Sequence record: PP180001
Origin: Escherichia phage mEp010
Reading direction: 5' to 3' (one strand)
DNA: 53,791 nt
Below the pieces are notes generated by a model. That model did no database searches. It saw nothing but the letters and a program-made list of their open reading frames with translations, and had not been told where the DNA came from. Positions 18,698 through 30,139 of this stretch are shown one piece after another. The first letter of the stretch is position 1. The number at the start of each line of letters is the position of its first letter. The position numbers and the translations under genes were made by a program.

Positions 18698-18880
18698 ATG
18701 AAAAACGAAATTAAAGATCTGCAAATAGATATTCAGCGCGATGAGCATGATTTAGAGACTGTGCGACAAATACAGGCTTTTCACATGAGAGAATTGCTTG
18801 CACTTAAAGAGCTTGAAATAAAGTTGGTGCAGGCAATATCTGATCGCAAAAGACTGGTTGCGCGTTACGGGGGCAAATAA
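18698..18880 (+). CDS. Hypothetical coiled-coil protein (60 aa)
   Basis: Track ORF. Confidence 0.45.
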   Translation: MKNEIKDLQIDIQRDEHDLETVRQIQAFHMRELLALKELEIKLVQAISDRKRLVARYGGK

Positions 18881-19608
18881 TGAATCTGGAATCAATTCTG
18901 AAATTCCACTTTCCAAAATCTCCGCGTTTATCAGATGAGAGCCGGGGCACGTCCCCGGATGCGCTTAATACTACGGATGCACTAACCGCTGCGGGTATGG
19001 CGCAATCGCGCGTGGAGCTTGGCTACAGCGCTTTTTTGGGGAAGATGGAACTATCACAAGCCGAAAAACATAAGGCCGTGGTTTTGCTTACAGAGCGTTT
19101 AAGTGCTATGGCAAAAGACTACGAATATGTTATGGAACTGGACGAGGCCAAACGCAATGATCTCATTATTCTTGTTGCCGTTTTCGCGTTTCGGGATTAT
19201 TGCCAGAGTGCAGCGACAGAAAAAGTTTGTCCTAAGTGCGGCGGTCACGGGCATTTACCAAATCCATATTGCGAATACACATCAACAATTTGCGCACGGT
19301 GCGGCGGCAAAGGCTACGTTAAAAACCATTGCCAGCGGTGCAAGGGCCGTGGCGAAGTACCGGATAAAGCAGCCAGCGAAGCGGCGGAAATGCCAGTGTT
19401 CAAAACGTGCCAGCATTGCGGCGGGCGCGGGTACTCGCGTTTCCCTGTAGATCTTGTCCGGCAGGCGGTTAATCAGCTTGTTTTTCCGGTAAGCCGATCA
19501 ACGTGGTGGAAGAAATACCGTGCTTTCTATGAAGACGCCATTGGTGAATTGTTCAAAGAAGAGGCGCGGGCTGATAACGAAATTAAACGAGTGACGCGGG
19601 GTGAATAA
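18880..19608 (+). CDS. DnaJ-type zinc-finger protein (four CxxCxGxG repeats) at the Q-antiterminator position
   Basis: CPKCGGHG, CARCGGKG, CQRCKGRG, CQHCGGRG; follows ninG-rusA as Q does in lambdoid phages, but Q identity unproven. Confidence 0.5.
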   Translation: MNLESILKFHFPKSPRLSDESRGTSPDALNTTDALTAAGMAQSRVELGYSAFLGKMELSQAEKHKAVVLLTERLSAMAKDYEYVMELDEAKRNDLIILVAVFAFRDYCQSAATEKVCPKCGGHGHLPNPYCEYTSTICARCGGKGYVKNHCQRCKGRGEVPDKAASEAAEMPVFKTCQHCGGRGYSRFPVDLVRQAVNQLVFPVSRSTWWKKYRAFYEDAIGELFKEEARADNEIKRVTRGE

Positions 19609-24831: not shown

Positions 24832-25010
24832 TTGAAGATGGGGTGTACGCAGCAACAGTAGTCGACGGGTTGTTTTACCGCGTGGAAGGTGATGATATTC
24901 GTATCCGTGTTGGCGGTGGCGAGTGGGTAGCGCCAATCATTAAGACGACGCGAGAAACAATTAAAATATTTCTTGATGCTGGTGAACTGGTAAAGGTTAG
25001 CGACCTATGA
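24828..25010 (+). CDS. Hypothetical protein (60 aa; MIEDGVY... paralog A)
   Basis: Track ORF; N-terminus paralogous to next gene. Confidence 0.45.
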   Translation: MIEDGVYAATVVDGLFYRVEGDDIRIRVGGGEWVAPIIKTTRETIKIFLDAGELVKVSDL

Positions 25011-25220: not shown

Positions 25221-25248
25221 ATTACCTAACAATGCGAAACTGTAACTA

Positions 25249-25270
25249 CCCGGCCCCGCGCCGGGTTTTT
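25249..25270 (+). terminator. Rho-independent terminator (tR'-like) upstream of holin
   Basis: CCCGGC-CCCGC-GCCGGG hairpin plus TTTTT. Confidence 0.6.
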
Positions 25271-25290: not shown

Positions 25291-25491
25291 ATGTTCGACA
25301 GAATACGGGAGGCGTGTGCGTATGTGACTGGGGCCGTAACTGCTTTTTTCGGCGCTATAACCATCAATGACGTCGCTGTTTTCGTTGGTATCTTATCAAC
25401 CATAGGCACATTTGCCGTTAATTATTACTTCAAATCACAGGAGAACAAGCGGGCGCAAGAGGAACACGACGCGCGAATGGGGAATAAGTAA
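25291..25491 (+). CDS. Holin, two-TMD pinholin type (S21-like)
   Basis: 66 aa, two TM segments, C-terminus NYYFKSQENKRAQEE resembles phage 21 S; GGAGGA SD. Confidence 0.75.
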   Translation: MFDRIREACAYVTGAVTAFFGAITINDVAVFVGILSTIGTFAVNYYFKSQENKRAQEEHDARMGNK

Positions 25492-25983
25492 ATGATTAGC
25501 CAATCGCTGAAAAACAAGATTGTTGCGGCGGCGGCTGGTGGGGCGATCGCTATTGCGGCGGTGATGATTAAGCCATTAGAGGGCGTGGAATACGATCCTT
25601 ATCGTGATGTTGTTGGCGTATGGACTGTTTGCTACGGTCACACCGGAAAAGACATCATGCTTGGGAAGACTTACACGCAATCAGAATGCGATGCTTTGTT
25701 GAACAAAGATCTACATAAGACCGCAAAAGCGATTGACCCATATATCAAAGTCGAAATATCAGATTTTACCCGCGCTGCACTTTATTCATTCGCCTATAAC
25801 GTAGGCGCAACCAACTTCAAAACATCAACCTTATTAAAGCTACTCAATGACGGCAAGAAATCAGAGGCGTGCGCACAGCTTAAGCGCTGGGTATACGCTG
25901 GCGGTAAGAAGTGGCAAGGCCTGGTTAACCGCCGCGAGGTTGAATATGCCGTTTGCGAATGGGGTGAGAAATGGACAAGGTGA
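25492..25983 (+). CDS. SAR endolysin (GH24 lysozyme with N-terminal signal-anchor-release domain)
   Basis: Strong resemblance to phage 21 R: Gly/Ala-rich SAR helix, EGV.Y.PY.D.VGVWTVC.GHTG, YSF.YNVGA.NF.TSTLL. Confidence 0.9.
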
Positions 25984-26441
25984 AGACGTTAATCATCGCC
26001 GTTGTTGTTTGCATTATTGCCGGACTGATCGCCGTAACGTGTTATTACCAGGGTGAAACGGCAAGGTTACAGGAAGAAGTCACGGTGACGAAAGGCGCAC
26101 TGAAGACAGCAAGTAACACTATTCAGCAGATGAAGGAGCGATACGCCGAACTGTCAAAACTTGATAAGAGGTATCACGATGAGATTAAAGCTATCAGATC
26201 TGACATTGCCGATCTGCGCACTGGCATTGATAACGGCACTATCAGGCTGCGCGTCAACGCAATACCCGTGCGAGTGTCCGACTCCGCCGAATCCGCCAGC
26301 CGCATTGATGGAGCCTCCTGTAGACTCACTCCCGACGCTGAATCGGCTTATCTATCCCTCAGAGAACAACTAAAAGAGAAAGATGCGAAGATAACCGCGC
26401 TTCAGGGCTACATCAAAACACAGTGCTTACGCAAAGAATAA
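25971..26441 (+). CDS. Rz: Rz-type i-spanin
   Basis: 156 aa; N-terminal TM then coiled-coil periplasmic domain; follows endolysin. Confidence 0.75.
26179..26373 (+). CDS. Rz1: Rz1-type o-spanin lipoprotein, embedded in +1 frame inside Rz
   Basis: Lipobox LSGC, Pro-rich mature part; AAGAGG SD; Met7 of track ORF 26161-26373. Confidence 0.75.
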   Translation: MRLKLSDLTLPICALALITALSGCASTQYPCECPTPPNPPAALMEPPVDSLPTLNRLIYPSENN

Positions 26442-26777
26442 CAGTGCGTTGACGTGTCGCCGTTTCTGCCAGCCAGCCATAACCGGGCCAATCCTTCCCG
26501 CGAGCGACGGCGGAAATTCAAAAACACGTAATACCGGATCAACAGTCCCATTAACAGGTCGGGCGCTACCTGGGTAGAAGAAAGCGCCATTACTCACCTG
26601 CCACGCGTAGGACGAGCGCCCGGATCTGTTTATCAGAGATGTTAAGCAGGTCCAGTTTTATAAAATTCTGCAAACGGTACTCACTAAGCGCCGTTTTCAG
26701 TGTTTTATAGCTGTTTTCACTCCCTGCGGTGTCGAGTTTTGCGGGGGTTATATTTTTCAGGATAGAGGAATATTCTG

Positions 26778-27335
26778 ATGGCTAAGGGTAAAGGCATTAA
26801 GTTGCCTCAATTCAAAGTCCCGCTCTTTGAGCATACAACAGTTTTCTTCTGCCCGACTCGCGACATGTTCTATGAATTTTGCGAAAAGGCAGGGATTCCG
26901 ATCGAACCTGATTTTGAACTGGCTGGAGGATTAACACTTACTTGCACTGGCGAGAAAGGCGGTAACTTCTACGTGATCGCAGTATTCGATAATGAGCTTG
27001 GTACGCTGGTCCATGAAGCGGCCCACACTACGTTCCACGTTTTAAGTGATGTAGGCGTCGTGGCGACCACTGATCCCAGCCATCCGGCAAACGAGACTTA
27101 TGCTTACATGGTAGGCCGTATCTTTGATGCTTTCTTCCCCATCCTGGCAGAATCAAATGAAGCACAGGTGGCAGCAATGCAGGCAGAAGAAATAACCGAA
27201 CGTCTTAGCGCACAAGAGGCAAGGGATATTGCTAATGAGGCAAAAGACAAGCAAAAGCCAGCTAAGAAAGGCAAACGTAAGCCTAAAGCAAAAGAGGCGC
27301 TTGTGCCGCGTGTTATGAGCTTTAAACGGGGGTGA
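26778..27335 (+). CDS. Hypothetical protein with HExxH motif and Lys-rich C-terminal tail
   Basis: 185 aa; LVHEAAHTTFH; C-terminus KDKQKPAKKGKRKPKAK. Confidence 0.55.
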   Translation: MAKGKGIKLPQFKVPLFEHTTVFFCPTRDMFYEFCEKAGIPIEPDFELAGGLTLTCTGEKGGNFYVIAVFDNELGTLVHEAAHTTFHVLSDVGVVATTDPSHPANETYAYMVGRIFDAFFPILAESNEAQVAAMQAEEITERLSAQEARDIANEAKDKQKPAKKGKRKPKAKEALVPRVMSFKRG

Positions 27336-27337
27336 TT

Positions 27338-28162
27338 ATGGGTATCCTTCTGGTATGTGTATTTATTGCTTTAGTTGCGATGGAGGTATTGCTCCCCATT
27401 TGGGCGGCAACCTGGATGATGCAAGATGATTGACCCGCTCATTATCCTTTCTGCCTGCGTCGCTGTATGGCTGGCGATCATGATATTCATTGAAAGTTAA
27501 AGGTTCTCATCATGAATATTTACGATCTAATCTGGTGGTCGTTGGTCGCCGTCATTATCTATTTCTGGTGGAAGAATGTTGTATAGGTGACGGCATGGAT
27601 ATATTCGAATTACTGGCGATTATGTTCGGAATGATGTTAAGCATTGTCGCCATAATTATCATCATCGGCCTTGTTATGGGTAGCATCAAATGAACGCATA
27701 CGAAATGCTATTGCTGGTGGCTGTTATTACAGTTATCGCCGTAGATTTTTATCGAGGGTTGAAAAGATGAGAGAAGCAGACTTCTTTTGCATGATTATAG
27801 TGATCGTCATCGTTGCCGTGCTTTTAAGCGTTAACTGAATCGCAGGAGGTTAAAAATGAAATTGCTTGATTTCTTTTTCCTGATTGTTGCGATTGTTCTT
27901 ACCATGACCGCGCTGACTCAATAGGTGAATATATGGAAACTATCGAAGCAGTATTATTCGTGTGCATCGCTGCGGTTGTTATTGTTGGGTTTATTATCAA
28001 TGTCTGACGTCGATTTCTTAATCATAGCTATAAGTTCGCTGTTAGTCGTTATCGTTTTCTTCGCATAAAGGGTAAGCAATGAAAGAGCTATTCGACTGGT
28101 TGGAAGTATTAACATACTGCGCAAGTTTTGTGGCTTGCGTATATATCATCAATAAATATTGA
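27338..28162 (+). other. Tandem array of ten micro-ORFs (22-32 codons each) encoding paralogous single-pass membrane micropeptides
   Basis: ORFs 27338-27433, 27426-27500, 27512-27586, 27595-27693, 27690-27770, 27767-27838, 27856-27924, 27933-28007, 28000-28068, 28079-28162; together fill the 837-bp gap exactly; SD sequences and ATGA couplings. Confidence 0.6.
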
Positions 28163-28172
28163 GAGGTGAATT

Positions 28173-28658
28173 ATGGCCCGCACTAAAAAGGCAAAAGCTG
28201 ACGATAAAAAGCCAGCCGCAAAAAGGGTGGGCCGTCCGCATGGTTATACCGAAGAAAAAGCATTAGAAATCTGTGAGCTGGTGGCGGACGGTCAGAGTGT
28301 TAACAAAATTTCGAAGATGCCTGGTATGCCTACCCGTTCAACAATTCTTAAATGGTTCAGAGACGTGCCGGAATTCTCGGACATGTACATGCGCGCGAAG
28401 GAAATCGGCTTCGAGGTGTTAGCTGATGAGATCCTCGATATAGCTGATGATGCTAAGAACGTTGATAAAGACCAACTACGCCGCCACCAACTAATGATTG
28501 AAACGCGTAAATGGTTACTGGCAAAACTGCAACCGCGCAAATATGGCGAACGCGTCACACAGGAGATCGTCGGCAACAAGGAAGAAGCGCCCGTCCAGGT
28601 TGAAGTCACGAAAGAAGAGATCGCCCGCATCGTCCAGGAAGTAGAAGACGAGGTGTGA
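28173..28658 (+). CDS. Terminase small subunit
   Basis: 161 aa; Lys-rich N-terminus, HTH (EICELVADGQSVNKISKMPGMPTRSTILKW), overlaps terL start. Confidence 0.8.
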   Translation: MARTKKAKADDKKPAAKRVGRPHGYTEEKALEICELVADGQSVNKISKMPGMPTRSTILKWFRDVPEFSDMYMRAKEIGFEVLADEILDIADDAKNVDKDQLRRHQLMIETRKWLLAKLQPRKYGERVTQEIVGNKEEAPVQVEVTKEEIARIVQEVEDEV

Positions 28659-30139
28659 TTATGTTGTCCATCAAAGAAAGGGTTATTCAGTCAAAATGTG
28701 AAAACGATGGCCTGTTTTTCAATCGCTATTTCTATAAACAAGCGAACGGAACGAAGATGTTAATATCAGGCCATCATTTAGCCATCCGTGATGCACTGCA
28801 ACGCGTTATTAATGGTGAGATAACCCGCCTCATCATTAACATTCCCCCAGGGTACGGTAAAACCATGATCGCTACTATCAACATGATGGCGCGGTCCCTC
28901 GCAATAAATCCCCGCACAAGATTCCTTCACGTTTCCTATTCCAACAACCTGGCATTACTCAATTCCTCGACTGTAAGAAACATGATCTGTACGCCTGAAT
29001 ATCAGGCAATGTGGCCCATGAAGATCCGCAACGATGCCAACAGTAAATCGATGTGGTGGACTGAATACGGTGGCGGTGTGTATGCAACGTCATCGCTTGG
29101 TCAGGTTACTGGGTTCCGTGCAGGGTATATGGAGCCAGGATTTAACGGCGCGTTAATCATCGACGACCCATTAAAACCCGCTGATGCTTACTCTGACGTG
29201 GTGAGAAAGCAGGTAAACACAAACTACAACGACACGCTTGCTTCACGTCTGGCAGTGCAAACAACGCCTGTTATCGTCATCATGCAGCGCATCCACTACG
29301 ATGATTTGTCCGGCTACCTGCTACGCGGTGGGAGCGGTGAAAAGTGGTATCACCTTAATCTGCCAGTAAAGATAGACAATAGCCTGGACTACTGGGATCT
29401 GTACCCTGAAAACGAATTCGCAATCCCTATTCCTCACAACCTGCCGGACGGCTGGCTATGGCCTAAAAAGCACAATGACGCCCATGAAGCTGGACTGAAA
29501 GCACACAGACGGTCATTTGAGGCCCAGTACATGCAGCGCCCGCGTAAATTCGACGAAGATGGTGCATTGTGGACTGAAGCCATGATAACCGCAGCGCACA
29601 GGATGCAGATAACGCAGGATAAGGTTCGCACGGTGATAGCCATCGACCCGGCGACAACGTCATCTGACGAATCTGACGAAACGGGGATCGTGGCATGTTC
29701 AGCCTATGGTGGCGGCAAGTATGCCCAATACTCAGTAGACGGTGACTATTCAGGCCGTATGTCTCCTAACGACTGGGCGCAAGCCTCAATAAACGCCTAC
29801 AACATCCATGAAGCTGACGCGATAGTTATCGAAACCAACCAGGGCGGTGAAATGGCAGAGGCAACGTTGCGTAATGCCGGATTTAAGGGCCGCATTGTTA
29901 AGGTGCATGCAAGCAAAGGTAAATTCGCCCGTGCCGAACCAATATCTGCACTGTATGCACAAGGAAGGGTAGCCCACACTGGCGAACTGTACACGCTGGA
30001 AAATCAAATGATGGAATACGTGCCAGCCACCGCCAAAAAATCCCCTGACCGTATGGACGCAATGGTATGGGGTATCACCGAACTAAGCCAGCCACAGGCA
30101 ATGGGCCTCATGTTACCGAAGCGCCTGCGCGGATTTTAA
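28655..30139 (+). CDS. Terminase large subunit
   Basis: 494 aa; Walker A-like PPGYGKT, nuclease domain; typical position. Confidence 0.85.
   Translation: MIMLSIKERVIQSKCENDGLFFNRYFYKQANGTKMLISGHHLAIRDALQRVINGEITRLIINIPPGYGKTMIATINMMARSLAINPRTRFLHVSYSNNLALLNSSTVRNMICTPEYQAMWPMKIRNDANSKSMWWTEYGGGVYATSSLGQVTGFRAGYMEPGFNGALIIDDPLKPADAYSDVVRKQVNTNYNDTLASRLAVQTTPVIVIMQRIHYDDLSGYLLRGGSGEKWYHLNLPVKIDNSLDYWDLYPENEFAIPIPHNLPDGWLWPKKHNDAHEAGLKAHRRSFEAQYMQRPRKFDEDGALWTEAMITAAHRMQITQDKVRTVIAIDPATTSSDESDETGIVACSAYGGGKYAQYSVDGDYSGRMSPNDWAQASINAYNIHEADAIVIETNQGGEMAEATLRNAGFKGRIVKVHASKGKFARAEPISALYAQGRVAHTGELYTLENQMMEYVPATAKKSPDRMDAMVWGITELSQPQAMGLMLPKRLRGF

Follow-up and report, generated by a model that had tools for sequence, protein, structure and literature searches.

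The gap between the lysis and packaging genes

In the sequence of Escherichia phage mEp010 (record PP180001; 'the window' is this whole stretch of 53,791 nt), the gene for an Rz-type spanin and an HExxH gene are separated by a gap in which a start-less minus-strand reading frame had been singled out. The features at issue are collected in Table 1. The downstream part of the gap, between the lysis and the packaging genes, holds an element of ~125 nt on the plus strand (26659-26780), composed in order of a hairpin (H1), an AU-rich linker, a terminator-like hairpin (H2) with a U-rich tail and a ribosome-binding region.

Table 1. Features in and beside the gap (window coordinates)
Feature	Position	Strand	Basis or assignment
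Rz-type spanin gene, upstream neighbour	25971..26441	+	Pfam PF03245 (1.3e-23), phrog_13
Upstream part of the Rz-HExxH gap	26442..26658		non-coding
Reported frame, stop to stop	26590..26784	-	very probably a chance open frame, not a gene
58-bp insertion/deletion polymorphism	26592..26650 (boundaries +/-3 nt)
H1, long imperfect hairpin, arms TATAAAATTCTGCAAACGG / CCGTTTTCAGTGTTTTATA	26659..26709	+	inverted repeat, RNAalifold consensus
Block B and AU-rich linker, CAGTGTTTTATAGCTGTTTTCAC (CAGAGTTTTATATAAGTTT in most relatives)	26698..26720	+	near-invariant in alignment A2
26-codon ATG ORF (MPLPLAIRIFLYPEKYNPRKTRHRRE), in a minus frame other than the reported one	26717..26797	-
H2, 9-bp GC-rich hairpin, UCCCUGCGG / UUGCGGGGG	26721..26747	+	MFE and centroid folds
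T-rich tail after H2 (TTATATTTTT)	26748..26757	+	direct reading of the sequence
H3 and HExxH translation start	26757..26780	+	fold, block conservation in A2
HExxH gene, first after the element	26778..27335	+	phrog_1365 (family of unknown function)

For comparison within the phage group, 53 close relatives (mEpimmI coliphages) were taken together with the window, 54 sequences in all. The upstream part of the gap is conserved (92-97%) within the mEpimmI group only, a search with the upstream 219 nt giving no match outside it, and 1-nt indels there switch the minus frames. The reported frame takes its stop and its final 20 codons from the polymorphic segment, which at 58 bp is not divisible by three; 11 of the 53 relatives have this segment and 42 lack it. 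By BLAST it occurs in 13 of 5,426 complete E. coli genomes, always in the same prophage context and with nothing annotated on it.

The minus-strand reading frame

Bounded upstream by an in-frame TAG (26784-82), the frame runs through 63 sense codons (26781-26593; the original prediction had placed it correctly and counted 62) and ends in ...ISDKQIRALVLRVAGE before a TAA (26590-26592). It does, as had been pointed out, run into the neighbouring gene, the overlap with the HExxH gene (ATG at 26778) being 4 nt, and its upstream TAG (26782-26784) falls in codons 2-3 of that gene. That it lacks an ATG or GTG start is right for ATG; the only other start codons in it are a TTG at codon 37, yielding a 27-aa ORF (26590..26673), and a GTG at codon 60, four codons ahead of the stop. 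Stop-free stretches of at least 63 codons number 167 on the minus strand of the window and 287 over its six frames, and from the minus-strand frequency of stop trinucleotides the probability of 63 codons staying open is ~0.035-0.05. The length of the frame is no more than expected by chance.

Just 12 of the 54 sequences keep the frame open for at least 63 codons; a stop is met at codon 4 in 32 of them and at codons 21-37 in most others. With these stops, the non-triplet 58-bp indel and the 1-nt frame-switching indels, the frame is not conserved among relatives, and codon periodicity is absent from it, the variable alignment columns being divided 31/32/32 among codon positions 1/2/3 with mean entropies of 0.72/0.80/0.86. 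Substitutions are, in short, not concentrated at third positions. Neither the frame (Pfam at E<=1) nor two neighbouring minus-strand ORFs had a match in Pfam or PHROG. A search of 5.8 billion proteins with the frame returned only three gene calls, all from the same locus, and in the phage collection there was no protein match outside its own locus. NCBI PGAP annotates neither gene nor pseudogene in the Rz-HExxH gap of E. coli prophages. The tBLASTn search that had been suggested as a check did find weak matches, of 45-47% identity, in Klebsiella and Providencia phages, and these lie in unannotated DNA.

The lambda bor gene lies antisense downstream of Rz. It is a precedent for a minus-strand gene at the map position and on the strand of the present frame, and lends some attraction to the original suggestion that the frame is the 3' remnant of a longer minus-strand gene that has lost its start. 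The frame also reaches 85-117 codons in a few relatives by running into other minus frames, and phanotate placed a neighbouring minus-strand ORF in mEp013 (equivalent to window 26427..26597). However, bor encodes a genuine lipoprotein, possesses a start codon and belongs to a Pfam family of its own; the frame has neither a usable start nor a family, and is not conserved as an ORF. Its longer versions differ from one another, being products of different frame-switching indels, and among the relatives none carries an intact copy that begins with a start codon in this frame. There is no protein, Pfam or PHROG similarity beyond the locus and no codon periodicity. Outside the phage group, conservation is of nucleotide blocks and of a covarying hairpin and does not follow codons, and the 58-bp piece that bears the C-terminus was found nowhere else in the 5,426 E. 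coli genomes. Descent from a disrupted gene is thus scarcely credible, and this part of the original prediction has already been largely refuted, by the missing family match and the breakage of the frame in most close relatives.

A different route to a product would start from the ATG of the 26-codon ORF (26797). With one G fewer in the run at 26743-47, that ORF fuses with the reported frame, and polymerase or ribosome slippage on the complementary CCCCC, or a phase-variable run of which the 5-G form in the window is the off phase, would then give a small minus-strand protein. Three short metagenome contigs whose run is 4 G (P0001-P0003, two of which were inspected) do have the fused, ATG-started ORF; the products, of 68, 83 and 108 aa, join MPLALAIRIFLYPEKYNP to AKLDTAGSENSYK... 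Their differing ends mean that there is no conserved product. The run has 5 G in all 40 of the 40 relatives with the window's H2 sequence, and past it the frame is in most relatives still interrupted by stops and the 58-bp indel. The ATG itself is antisense within the HExxH gene, in an N-terminal region that the element's Klebsiella and Providencia versions lack. The contigs are only ~1.2 kb long and the length of a homopolymer is prone to error, such errors being common. Synthesis of a protein in this way is very improbable.

The frame is very likely not a gene; it would be an accidental stop-free stretch, neither translated nor the leftover of a gene. The other option offered originally, that it is simply non-coding, is right as far as it goes and incomplete, because the DNA is not a neutral spacer: the 5' two-thirds of the frame, in the minus-strand reading, are the reverse complement of a conserved, structured and presumably cis-acting leader on the plus strand.

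A structured element on the plus strand

The H1 arms are 19 nt long in the window and pair over up to 22 bp in relatives. The lower stem is conserved in sequence and nearly palindromic, and the upper stem covaries. Variants from Klebsiella and Providencia phages have 12 bp, a 2x2 internal loop and a further 9-10 bp, and in the window (19 paired positions, 2 mismatches) the internal loop is reduced to a single C-U mismatch. In the records of mEp021 (TERM_6) and mEp013 (ARNold T11) H1 is annotated as a predicted terminator. Block B with the linker extends from the 3' base of H1 across the unpaired spacer to H2, and is kept even where the 5' arm of H1 has been swapped for a different hairpin.

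A hairpin occupies the place of H2 in nearly all variants, those with replaced sequence included. Its loop motif GTGTCGA is conserved, and it is H2 that contains the 5-G run (26743-26747). In the window a 9-bp stem and 9-nt loop are followed by the tail UUAUAUUUUU, which together with the stem looks like an intrinsic terminator. The consensus promoter and terminator scan of 26300-26900 called nothing on either strand, H2 being missed because its loop exceeds 8 nt. At the same position some relatives have a perfect 12-bp stem and then U7, and others have no U-tract. Since a good U-tail is limited to some variants, efficient termination at H2 is not universal.

Downstream, the fold of the 8-bp hairpin H3 (UCAGGAUA / UAUUCUGA) exposes the Shine-Dalgarno sequence GAGGAA (26765-26770) in its loop, shortly before the HExxH ATG (26778-26780); the conserved block here is AGAGGA-T-TTCTG. 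By eye in alignment A2, only the mEpimmI group has the H3 pairing, for which covariation across all variants gives no support. A CAGAG/UUCUG hairpin masking the Shine-Dalgarno sequence was considered as a feature common to all variants and rejected, the pairing being lost in the divergent variants L057 and L080, so that H3 is treated as group-specific.

Pairing in H1 holds in 90.1% of alignment cells versus 38-49% for slid partners. Seven pairs have changed on both sides, and the covariation (0.184) exceeds that of shuffles (0.114), 0 of 500 of which reach it. The search patterns themselves prescribed several of the H1 columns, whose invariance is therefore uninformative; only ~7 pairs truly covary. 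The mean MFE of H1 is -20.8 kcal/mol (z -5.9) on the plus strand versus -15.9 on the minus strand, and that of H2 is -11.1 (z -2.0). The plus strand gives the more stable fold of H1 in 91 of 101 variants and of H2 in 90 of 101, and wobble pairs are biased in the same direction (G-U in 219 cells versus A-C in 76). For the whole element the fold z values are -3.0 (window), -3.2, -6.2 and -5.6. Where the sequence of H1 or H2 has been replaced in a variant, another hairpin stands in its stead. RNAalifold gave no consensus for H2 across variants, the register of the stem differing between them, and H2 was for this reason folded sequence by sequence. A covariance model search of the window found one copy, at 128 bits. 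Rfam 15 had no match in the whole window at the gathering score, nor in 26380-26860 at E<=10. With good confidence the element can be regarded as conserved and functional on the plus strand.

Sequence conservation in the H1 lower stem, in the H2 loop GTGTCGAAATT and in AGAGGA-T-TTCTG exceeds the needs of a plain terminator or processing hairpin. A protein that binds here, to DNA or to RNA, could account for the excess.

About 100 sequence variants were found in temperate phages of Escherichia, Klebsiella, Providencia, Raoultella, Tatumella and Rosenbergiella. Two independent pattern scans matched 70 and 83 viral contigs. Among genome contigs there were 12 matches, with ~5 expected by chance; four are clearly from Enterobacterales and have the canonical spacing, and at least one (L160), beside ORFs of cobalamin-type methyltransferases, looks like chance. 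The position is always directly upstream of the first gene of the packaging module, whichever gene that is. The unrelated genes found there encode HExxH proteins (phrog_1365 or phrog_513), small terminases (TerS; phrog_51 or phrog_606), an HslV-like peptidase or a head-fibre-like protein, and the tBLASTn matches in Klebsiella and Providencia phages abut the start of a metallopeptidase gene or of an unnamed gene immediately upstream of the large-terminase gene. In most contexts examined, the stop of the upstream ORF is within ~15 nt of the element. In the window the element is 1.4 kb upstream of an Sf6-like small-terminase gene, a Q-like antiterminator is encoded at 18880-19608, and there are further terminator-like sites on the plus strand along the path of the late transcript. 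The phage has N-like and Q-like proteins (PMC11893012). The full-text literature search gave no description of the element, and the mEpimmI paper (PMC11893012) has no discussion of the gap.

Possible roles and known counterparts

Lying at the junction of the lysis and the packaging-head genes, the element would be carried by the late Q-antiterminated transcript of a mEp021-group (mEpimmI) coliphage and may serve as RNA-level punctuation of this polycistronic mRNA; it is the position, the strand bias and the covariation that suggest a role at the RNA level. H2, and in the mEpimmI group H1 as well, would halt polymerase without the Q modification and so insulate the structural genes. The long H1 duplex with the AU-rich linker may serve in RNA processing and stability in the manner of RNase III and RNase E sites; in structure H1 fits the pattern of an RNase III site, for which about two turns of duplex RNA (at least 20 bp), often with an internal loop, are typical. 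The last block would govern the start of translation of the first packaging gene. This specific mechanism of processing and termination is put forward tentatively, as one that may well be wrong; the overall explanation, a chance frame over a conserved plus-strand leader, is considered highly probable.

RNase III signals of T7 (e.g. R1.1) and the N-leader and sib hairpins of lambda are likewise intercistronic on the coding strand of polycistronic phage mRNA and just upstream of a ribosome-binding site, and, like H1, are imperfect duplexes of ~20-22 bp with a small internal loop. The element has no sequence similarity to them and no Rfam match, and it has an additional second hairpin and conserved single-stranded blocks that the T7 sites lack. 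Terminators of the lambda tR' type share with H2 a GC-rich hairpin with U-rich sequence and a Q-family gene upstream. However, tR' lies just past the late promoter, ahead of the lysis genes, whereas the element comes after them, has hairpin-flanking blocks conserved across distant phages and in many variants has a weak U-tail. A third likeness is to the put RNAs of HK022, also two adjacent conserved hairpins on a nascent temperate coliphage transcript, for which, as is proposed for the element, action is in cis. The put sites adjoin early promoters and stand in for a protein antiterminator, whereas the present phage has N-like and Q-like proteins; sequence or Rfam similarity is again absent, and an effect on polymerase is known for put only.

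Simpler and more elaborate accounts of the element have to be weighed against RNA-level punctuation. H1 might be a plain Rho-independent terminator of the lysis transcript, with the remainder an ordinary 5' untranslated region. Two prediction programs did call H1 in GenBank records (mEp021, mEp013), its upper stem in the window is followed by UUUUCAGUGUUUU, and a Q-like antiterminator of the late operon could read through it. Yet covariation and conservation span the 12-bp lower stem, in which the supposed U-tract is included, and what comes after the stem in the Klebsiella and Providencia phages, AUUGACAGAG, makes a poor U-tract. The unpaired flanks and the H2 loop are, moreover, conserved among phages with unrelated neighbouring genes, which is not required of a terminator, and this account is rather unlikely. 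At the other extreme is an undescribed class of cis-regulatory RNA, common to Q-type temperate phages of Enterobacterales, that would time or scale expression of the packaging-head genes relative to the lysis genes. It might for instance be a switch, dependent on RNase III or on a protein, whose repeated UUCUG and CAGAG blocks exchange partners and thereby free or mask the ribosome-binding site. Conserved as it is up to the start codon, the leader would on this view double as a recombination joint for swaps of the packaging module. As things stand such a class is speculative, and its existence is on the unlikely side.

The element could also act as DNA, as a site for a phage protein, whether for packaging (of the pac or cos kind) or, as operator or activator, for control of a late promoter of the structural genes. 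Its place at the head of the packaging module would suit this, as would the near-palindromic lower stem of H1, the recurrence of TTCTG and CAGAG half-sites in blocks A, B and E and conservation beyond the needs of pairing. Against it stand the strand preference of wobble pairs and folding energies, unexpected for duplex DNA, and the H1 upper stem and H2 stems, which vary in sequence with pairing kept. No sigma-70-like promoter, with -35 and -10 hexamers 16-18 bp apart, was found on either strand of 26300-26900: the conserved TTGACA of block B lacks a properly spaced -10, and a TCGACA...TATATA pair on the minus strand is likewise misspaced by eye. The genes that follow the element include small-terminase genes from two or more unrelated PHROG families (phrog_51, phrog_606) as well as genes other than terminases, and its distance from the terminase gene in the window is 1.4 kb. 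The variety of terminase families downstream, and the variable spacing between element and terminase gene, led to rejection of a cos or pac site. (The ends of the Klebsiella phage RCIP0114 record hold no cos information, the record being merely linearised at the large-terminase gene.) Action as DNA is improbable. Quite improbable also is release of a trans-acting sRNA from the 3' end of the lysis transcript, with H1 as its body, an AU-rich site of the Hfq type and H2 as its terminator. Hfq-dependent and 3'-UTR-derived sRNAs have a similar layout, of a hairpin, an AU-rich single strand and a GC-rich hairpin with a U-tail, and in some variants there is a strong terminator at H2. But no promoter was found, many variants are without a U-tail after H2, and a role in cis is indicated by the conserved ribosome-binding block and by the constant spacing from the next start codon.

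For annotation, the minus frame should be called neither gene nor pseudogene, and the small ORFs placed in the gap by various pipelines (mEp013_65, mEp515_63, a MagusPhagus CDS and three metagenome proteins) are probably spurious. The gap holds a structured leader that many phages share, placed where the late operon passes from lysis to packaging genes. It marks a precise mosaic joint between phage modules. This junction needs differential expression from one promoter, by means that are poorly understood. The element, small, clearly covarying and present in a culturable phage of E. coli K-12, mEp021, is therefore directly testable for a role in termination, processing or translation.

The minus-strand frame between Rz and the HExxH gene

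The original prediction had described a minus-strand frame of 62 codons, without an ATG or GTG start and running into the neighbouring gene, as the possible 3′ remnant of a disrupted gene or as simply non-coding. The frame exists, but with 63 sense codons (minus strand, from 26781 to 26593; TAA at 26592-90, upstream in-frame TAG at 26784-82), and it does run into its neighbour, overlapping the HExxH gene by 4 nt. ATG is absent as described, but a GTG four codons before the end had been overlooked, as had a TTG at codon 37 that gives a 27-aa ORF. An open stretch of this length is unremarkable in the window: on its minus strand 167 stretches run for 63 codons or more without a stop, and the probability of 63 codons being open at the local stop frequency is 0.035-0.05.

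The frame is neither a gene nor the remnant of one, on account of stops in relatives, a 58-bp indel, the lack of codon periodicity and the lack of matches in Pfam and PHROGs. Six GenBank phages and 47 contigs from IMG/VR were compared as close relatives, 53 in all, or 54 sequences with the window. A stop at codon 4 (PSE*) is present in 32 of the 54, most of the others have one at codons 21-37, and only 12 are open for at least 63 codons; all versions begin at the same upstream stop, and a start codon in the frame was found in none of them. The indel (window ~26592-26650) has a length not divisible by three; 42 of the 53 relatives lack the segment, and with it the final 20 codons and the stop, and 11 have it. 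Variation in the alignment shows no preference for any of the frame's codon positions (31/32/32 variable columns), and neither the frame nor the two other minus-strand ORFs of the gap matched Pfam or PHROGs. The gap region was found in 35 of 5,426 complete E. coli genomes and the 58-bp segment in 13 of the 5,426, only in this prophage context and unannotated there; in E. coli prophages PGAP leaves the gap without any gene or pseudogene. The small ORFs called in the gap vary by pipeline (mEp013_65 on the minus strand, mEp515_63 and a MagusPhagus CDS on the plus strand), as expected of non-coding DNA.

Searching for protein similarity, as had been proposed together with the remnant reading, does give matches, but these are gene calls at the same locus or unannotated gap DNA. 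Among 5.8 billion predicted proteins there were three (P0001-P0003), all unnamed gene calls at this locus whose products end differently. Two of the three contigs were read (both ~1.2-kb metagenome contigs); at 26743-47 they have a run of four Gs where the window has five (five Cs on the minus strand), and the shorter run joins a 26-codon ATG ORF (26797..26717) to the frame and yields ATG-started minus-strand ORFs of 68-108 aa that gene callers have deposited as proteins. The run is five Gs in 40 of 40 relatives with this sequence. We take the four-G state to reflect either variation in homopolymer length or faulty assembly, and not an intact ancestral gene. Besides close relatives, tBLASTn against phage genomes found weak matches (45-47% identity, residues 2-41/43 of the frame) in three phages, two of Klebsiella and one of Providencia. 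In each of them the matching DNA corresponds to a gap without annotation, ~120 nt long, that abuts the next start codon. Its map position is that of the window's gap, and it is followed by a 'putative metallopeptidase' gene or an unnamed gene directly 5′ of the large-terminase gene. Since the matches lie in unannotated gaps and the proteins encoded downstream show no similarity to the HExxH protein of the window (BLASTP E = 0.07), the similarity is at the nucleotide and not the protein level.

A structured plus-strand element and its surroundings

What is conserved at this position is a plus-strand leader of about 125 nt (26659-26780). The region has 93-97% identity to that of the mEpimmI coliphages mEp021, mEp515, mEp013, mEp554, mEp044 and MagusPhagus, members of a group of Nus-dependent, non-lambdoid coliphages (PMC11893012).

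Features of the element and of the late region around it
Feature	Position	Strand	Remark
Q-family antiterminator gene	18880-19608		phrog_127, 3e-78; 32% identical to Q of Klebsiella phage RAH1
Holin gene	25291-25491	+	
Lysozyme gene	25492-25983	+	PF00959
Rz spanin gene	25971-26441	+	PF03245; embedded lipoprotein ORF
Gap between Rz and HExxH genes			336 bp
H1, long hairpin	26659-26709	+	
Block B and AU-rich linker	26698-26720	+	
H2	26721-26747	+	9-bp stem, conserved loop motif GTGTCGA
TTATATTTTT	26748-57	+	directly 3′ of H2
H3, third hairpin	26757-26778	+	from fold; Shine-Dalgarno GAGGAA in loop, ends at A of ATG
HExxH protein gene	26778-27335	+	phrog_1365; function not assigned
Several tiny ORFs	between HExxH and TerS genes	+	
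Small terminase subunit (TerS) gene	28173-28658	+	Sf6-type
Large terminase gene	28655-30139	+	

Scanning IMG/VR with two patterns, each anchored on different conserved blocks, gave 70 and 83 contigs and about 100 distinct variants. With one genome per species, the element was found in Raoultella, Rosenbergiella and two Tatumella species; the GenBank phages that carry it are mostly temperate phages of Klebsiella. In relatives a 2x2 internal loop separates the 12-bp lower stem of H1 from an upper stem of 9-10 bp. In a 75-sequence alignment 90.1% of H1 cells are paired (38-49% with slid partners), seven pairs are altered on both sides and the covariation score exceeds all 500 shuffles; about half of the H1 stem columns were fixed by the first search pattern, and the second scan, which left them free, found this 5′ arm again, differing in compatible ways, e.g. 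U-G to C-G. The mean MFE of H1 is -20.8 kcal/mol (z -5.9). Folded as a whole, the element has a z score of -3.0 in the window, and three further variants score -3.2, -6.2 and -5.6. With a covariance model made from the element alignment, the window gives a single hit (128 bits); a search of Rfam gave no match to the element.

The 5′ side is occupied by lysis genes, often then one to three small accessory ORFs, and in most contexts examined the last upstream stop codon is at most ~15 nt away. The gene 3′ of it is that for a phrog_513 or phrog_1365 HExxH protein, a phrog_51 or phrog_606 TerS, an HslV-like peptidase or a head-fibre-like protein, or, in Providencia phage PSTNGR2lys, an unnamed gene directly 5′ of the large-terminase gene. 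From this flanking context the element is intercistronic within the late operon, and it marks where the packaging module has its first base. In the window, 27336-28170 holds a string of very small hydrophobic ORFs (roughly 30-67 aa), where mEp013 (L002 2419-2904) has an HNH-endonuclease gene between the HExxH and terminase genes.

The first two-thirds of the gap (26442-26658) is 92-97% conserved inside the phage group, with no match found outside it, and contains an inverted repeat (26449-63/26507-21) and 1-nt indels. E. coli MLI107 has an extra 200-aa gene between Rz and the counterpart of this stretch, which therefore travels with the downstream element and not with Rz. Within the 58-bp segment the 3′ part (~26623-26654) is predicted to form its own RNA hairpin, and 26615-22 (AGCGCCCG) to pair with 26560-67 (CGGGCGCT).

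A possible role in late RNA

Rival readings of the element, less likely than the one given below, are a plain terminator, a DNA site and a trans-acting sRNA. Against a DNA site stands the strand preference (H1 folds better on the plus than on the minus strand in 91 of 101 variants, H2 in 90 of 101; G-U wobbles outnumber A-C, 219 vs 76), and against both a DNA site and an sRNA the absence of a promoter-like site at the element on either strand in a consensus scan. Termination is pertinent in that H1 is a predicted terminator in the mEp021 and mEp013 records, and further plus-strand terminator-like sites lie along the same transcript path, e.g. 25248-25266 (ACCCGGC...GCCGGGT TTTT), just 5′ of the holin gene. 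A hairpin is still present where the sequence has been swapped. L133, L138 and L141 (IMG/VR) have, instead of the H1 5′ arm, an unrelated AT-rich hairpin (AUUUAUUUA/UAAAUAAAU) while retaining CAGAGTTTTATATAAGTT and all sequence 3′ of it, and in L021, L044 and L054 a UUCCUG/CAGGAA hairpin takes the place of H2. In L032 (IMG/VR 2585427779_000013, 913-1485), a 190-aa ORF is inserted directly after H1, with H2 and the ribosome-binding block replaced; HNH-type motifs judged by eye suggest a homing-endonuclease-like product, of free-standing look.

Given its position on the coding strand without a promoter-like site, the terminator-like sites on the path and the Q-type gene upstream, the element is taken to act in the late polycistronic RNA, and we infer punctuation of that RNA as the most economical reading. 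H2, and in this phage group also H1, would halt polymerase that is unmodified. Processing and stability would be determined, in the manner of RNase III/RNase E sites, by the ~20-bp duplex of H1 together with the AU-rich linker, and the final block would control how translation of the first packaging gene begins. Some blocks are conserved although unpaired, repeated UUCUG and CAGAG among them, and these suggest a more specific function, with either a protein partner or alternative pairings. In the alignment of variants an (A/G)TTCTG(C) direct repeat is seen in the H1 5′ arm (26662-26670) and just 5′ of the start codon (26769-26777), and CAGAG in both the H1 3′ arm and the ribosome-binding block, making alternative long-range pairings possible. 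A promoter-like site (TTAAGA-16-TAAAAT, 24940-24967) is followed ~280 nt later by the strong terminator-like hairpin at 25248-25266, and the layout of both with the holin gene recalls lambda pR′-tR′-S. The Q-like gene does not adjoin the lysis genes as Q does in lambda; 5.7 kb with many small ORFs separate it from the lysis cassette downstream.

The location of the reported frame overlies a conserved structured intercistronic element of a kind familiar in phage late operons, this particular one being apparently undescribed so far.
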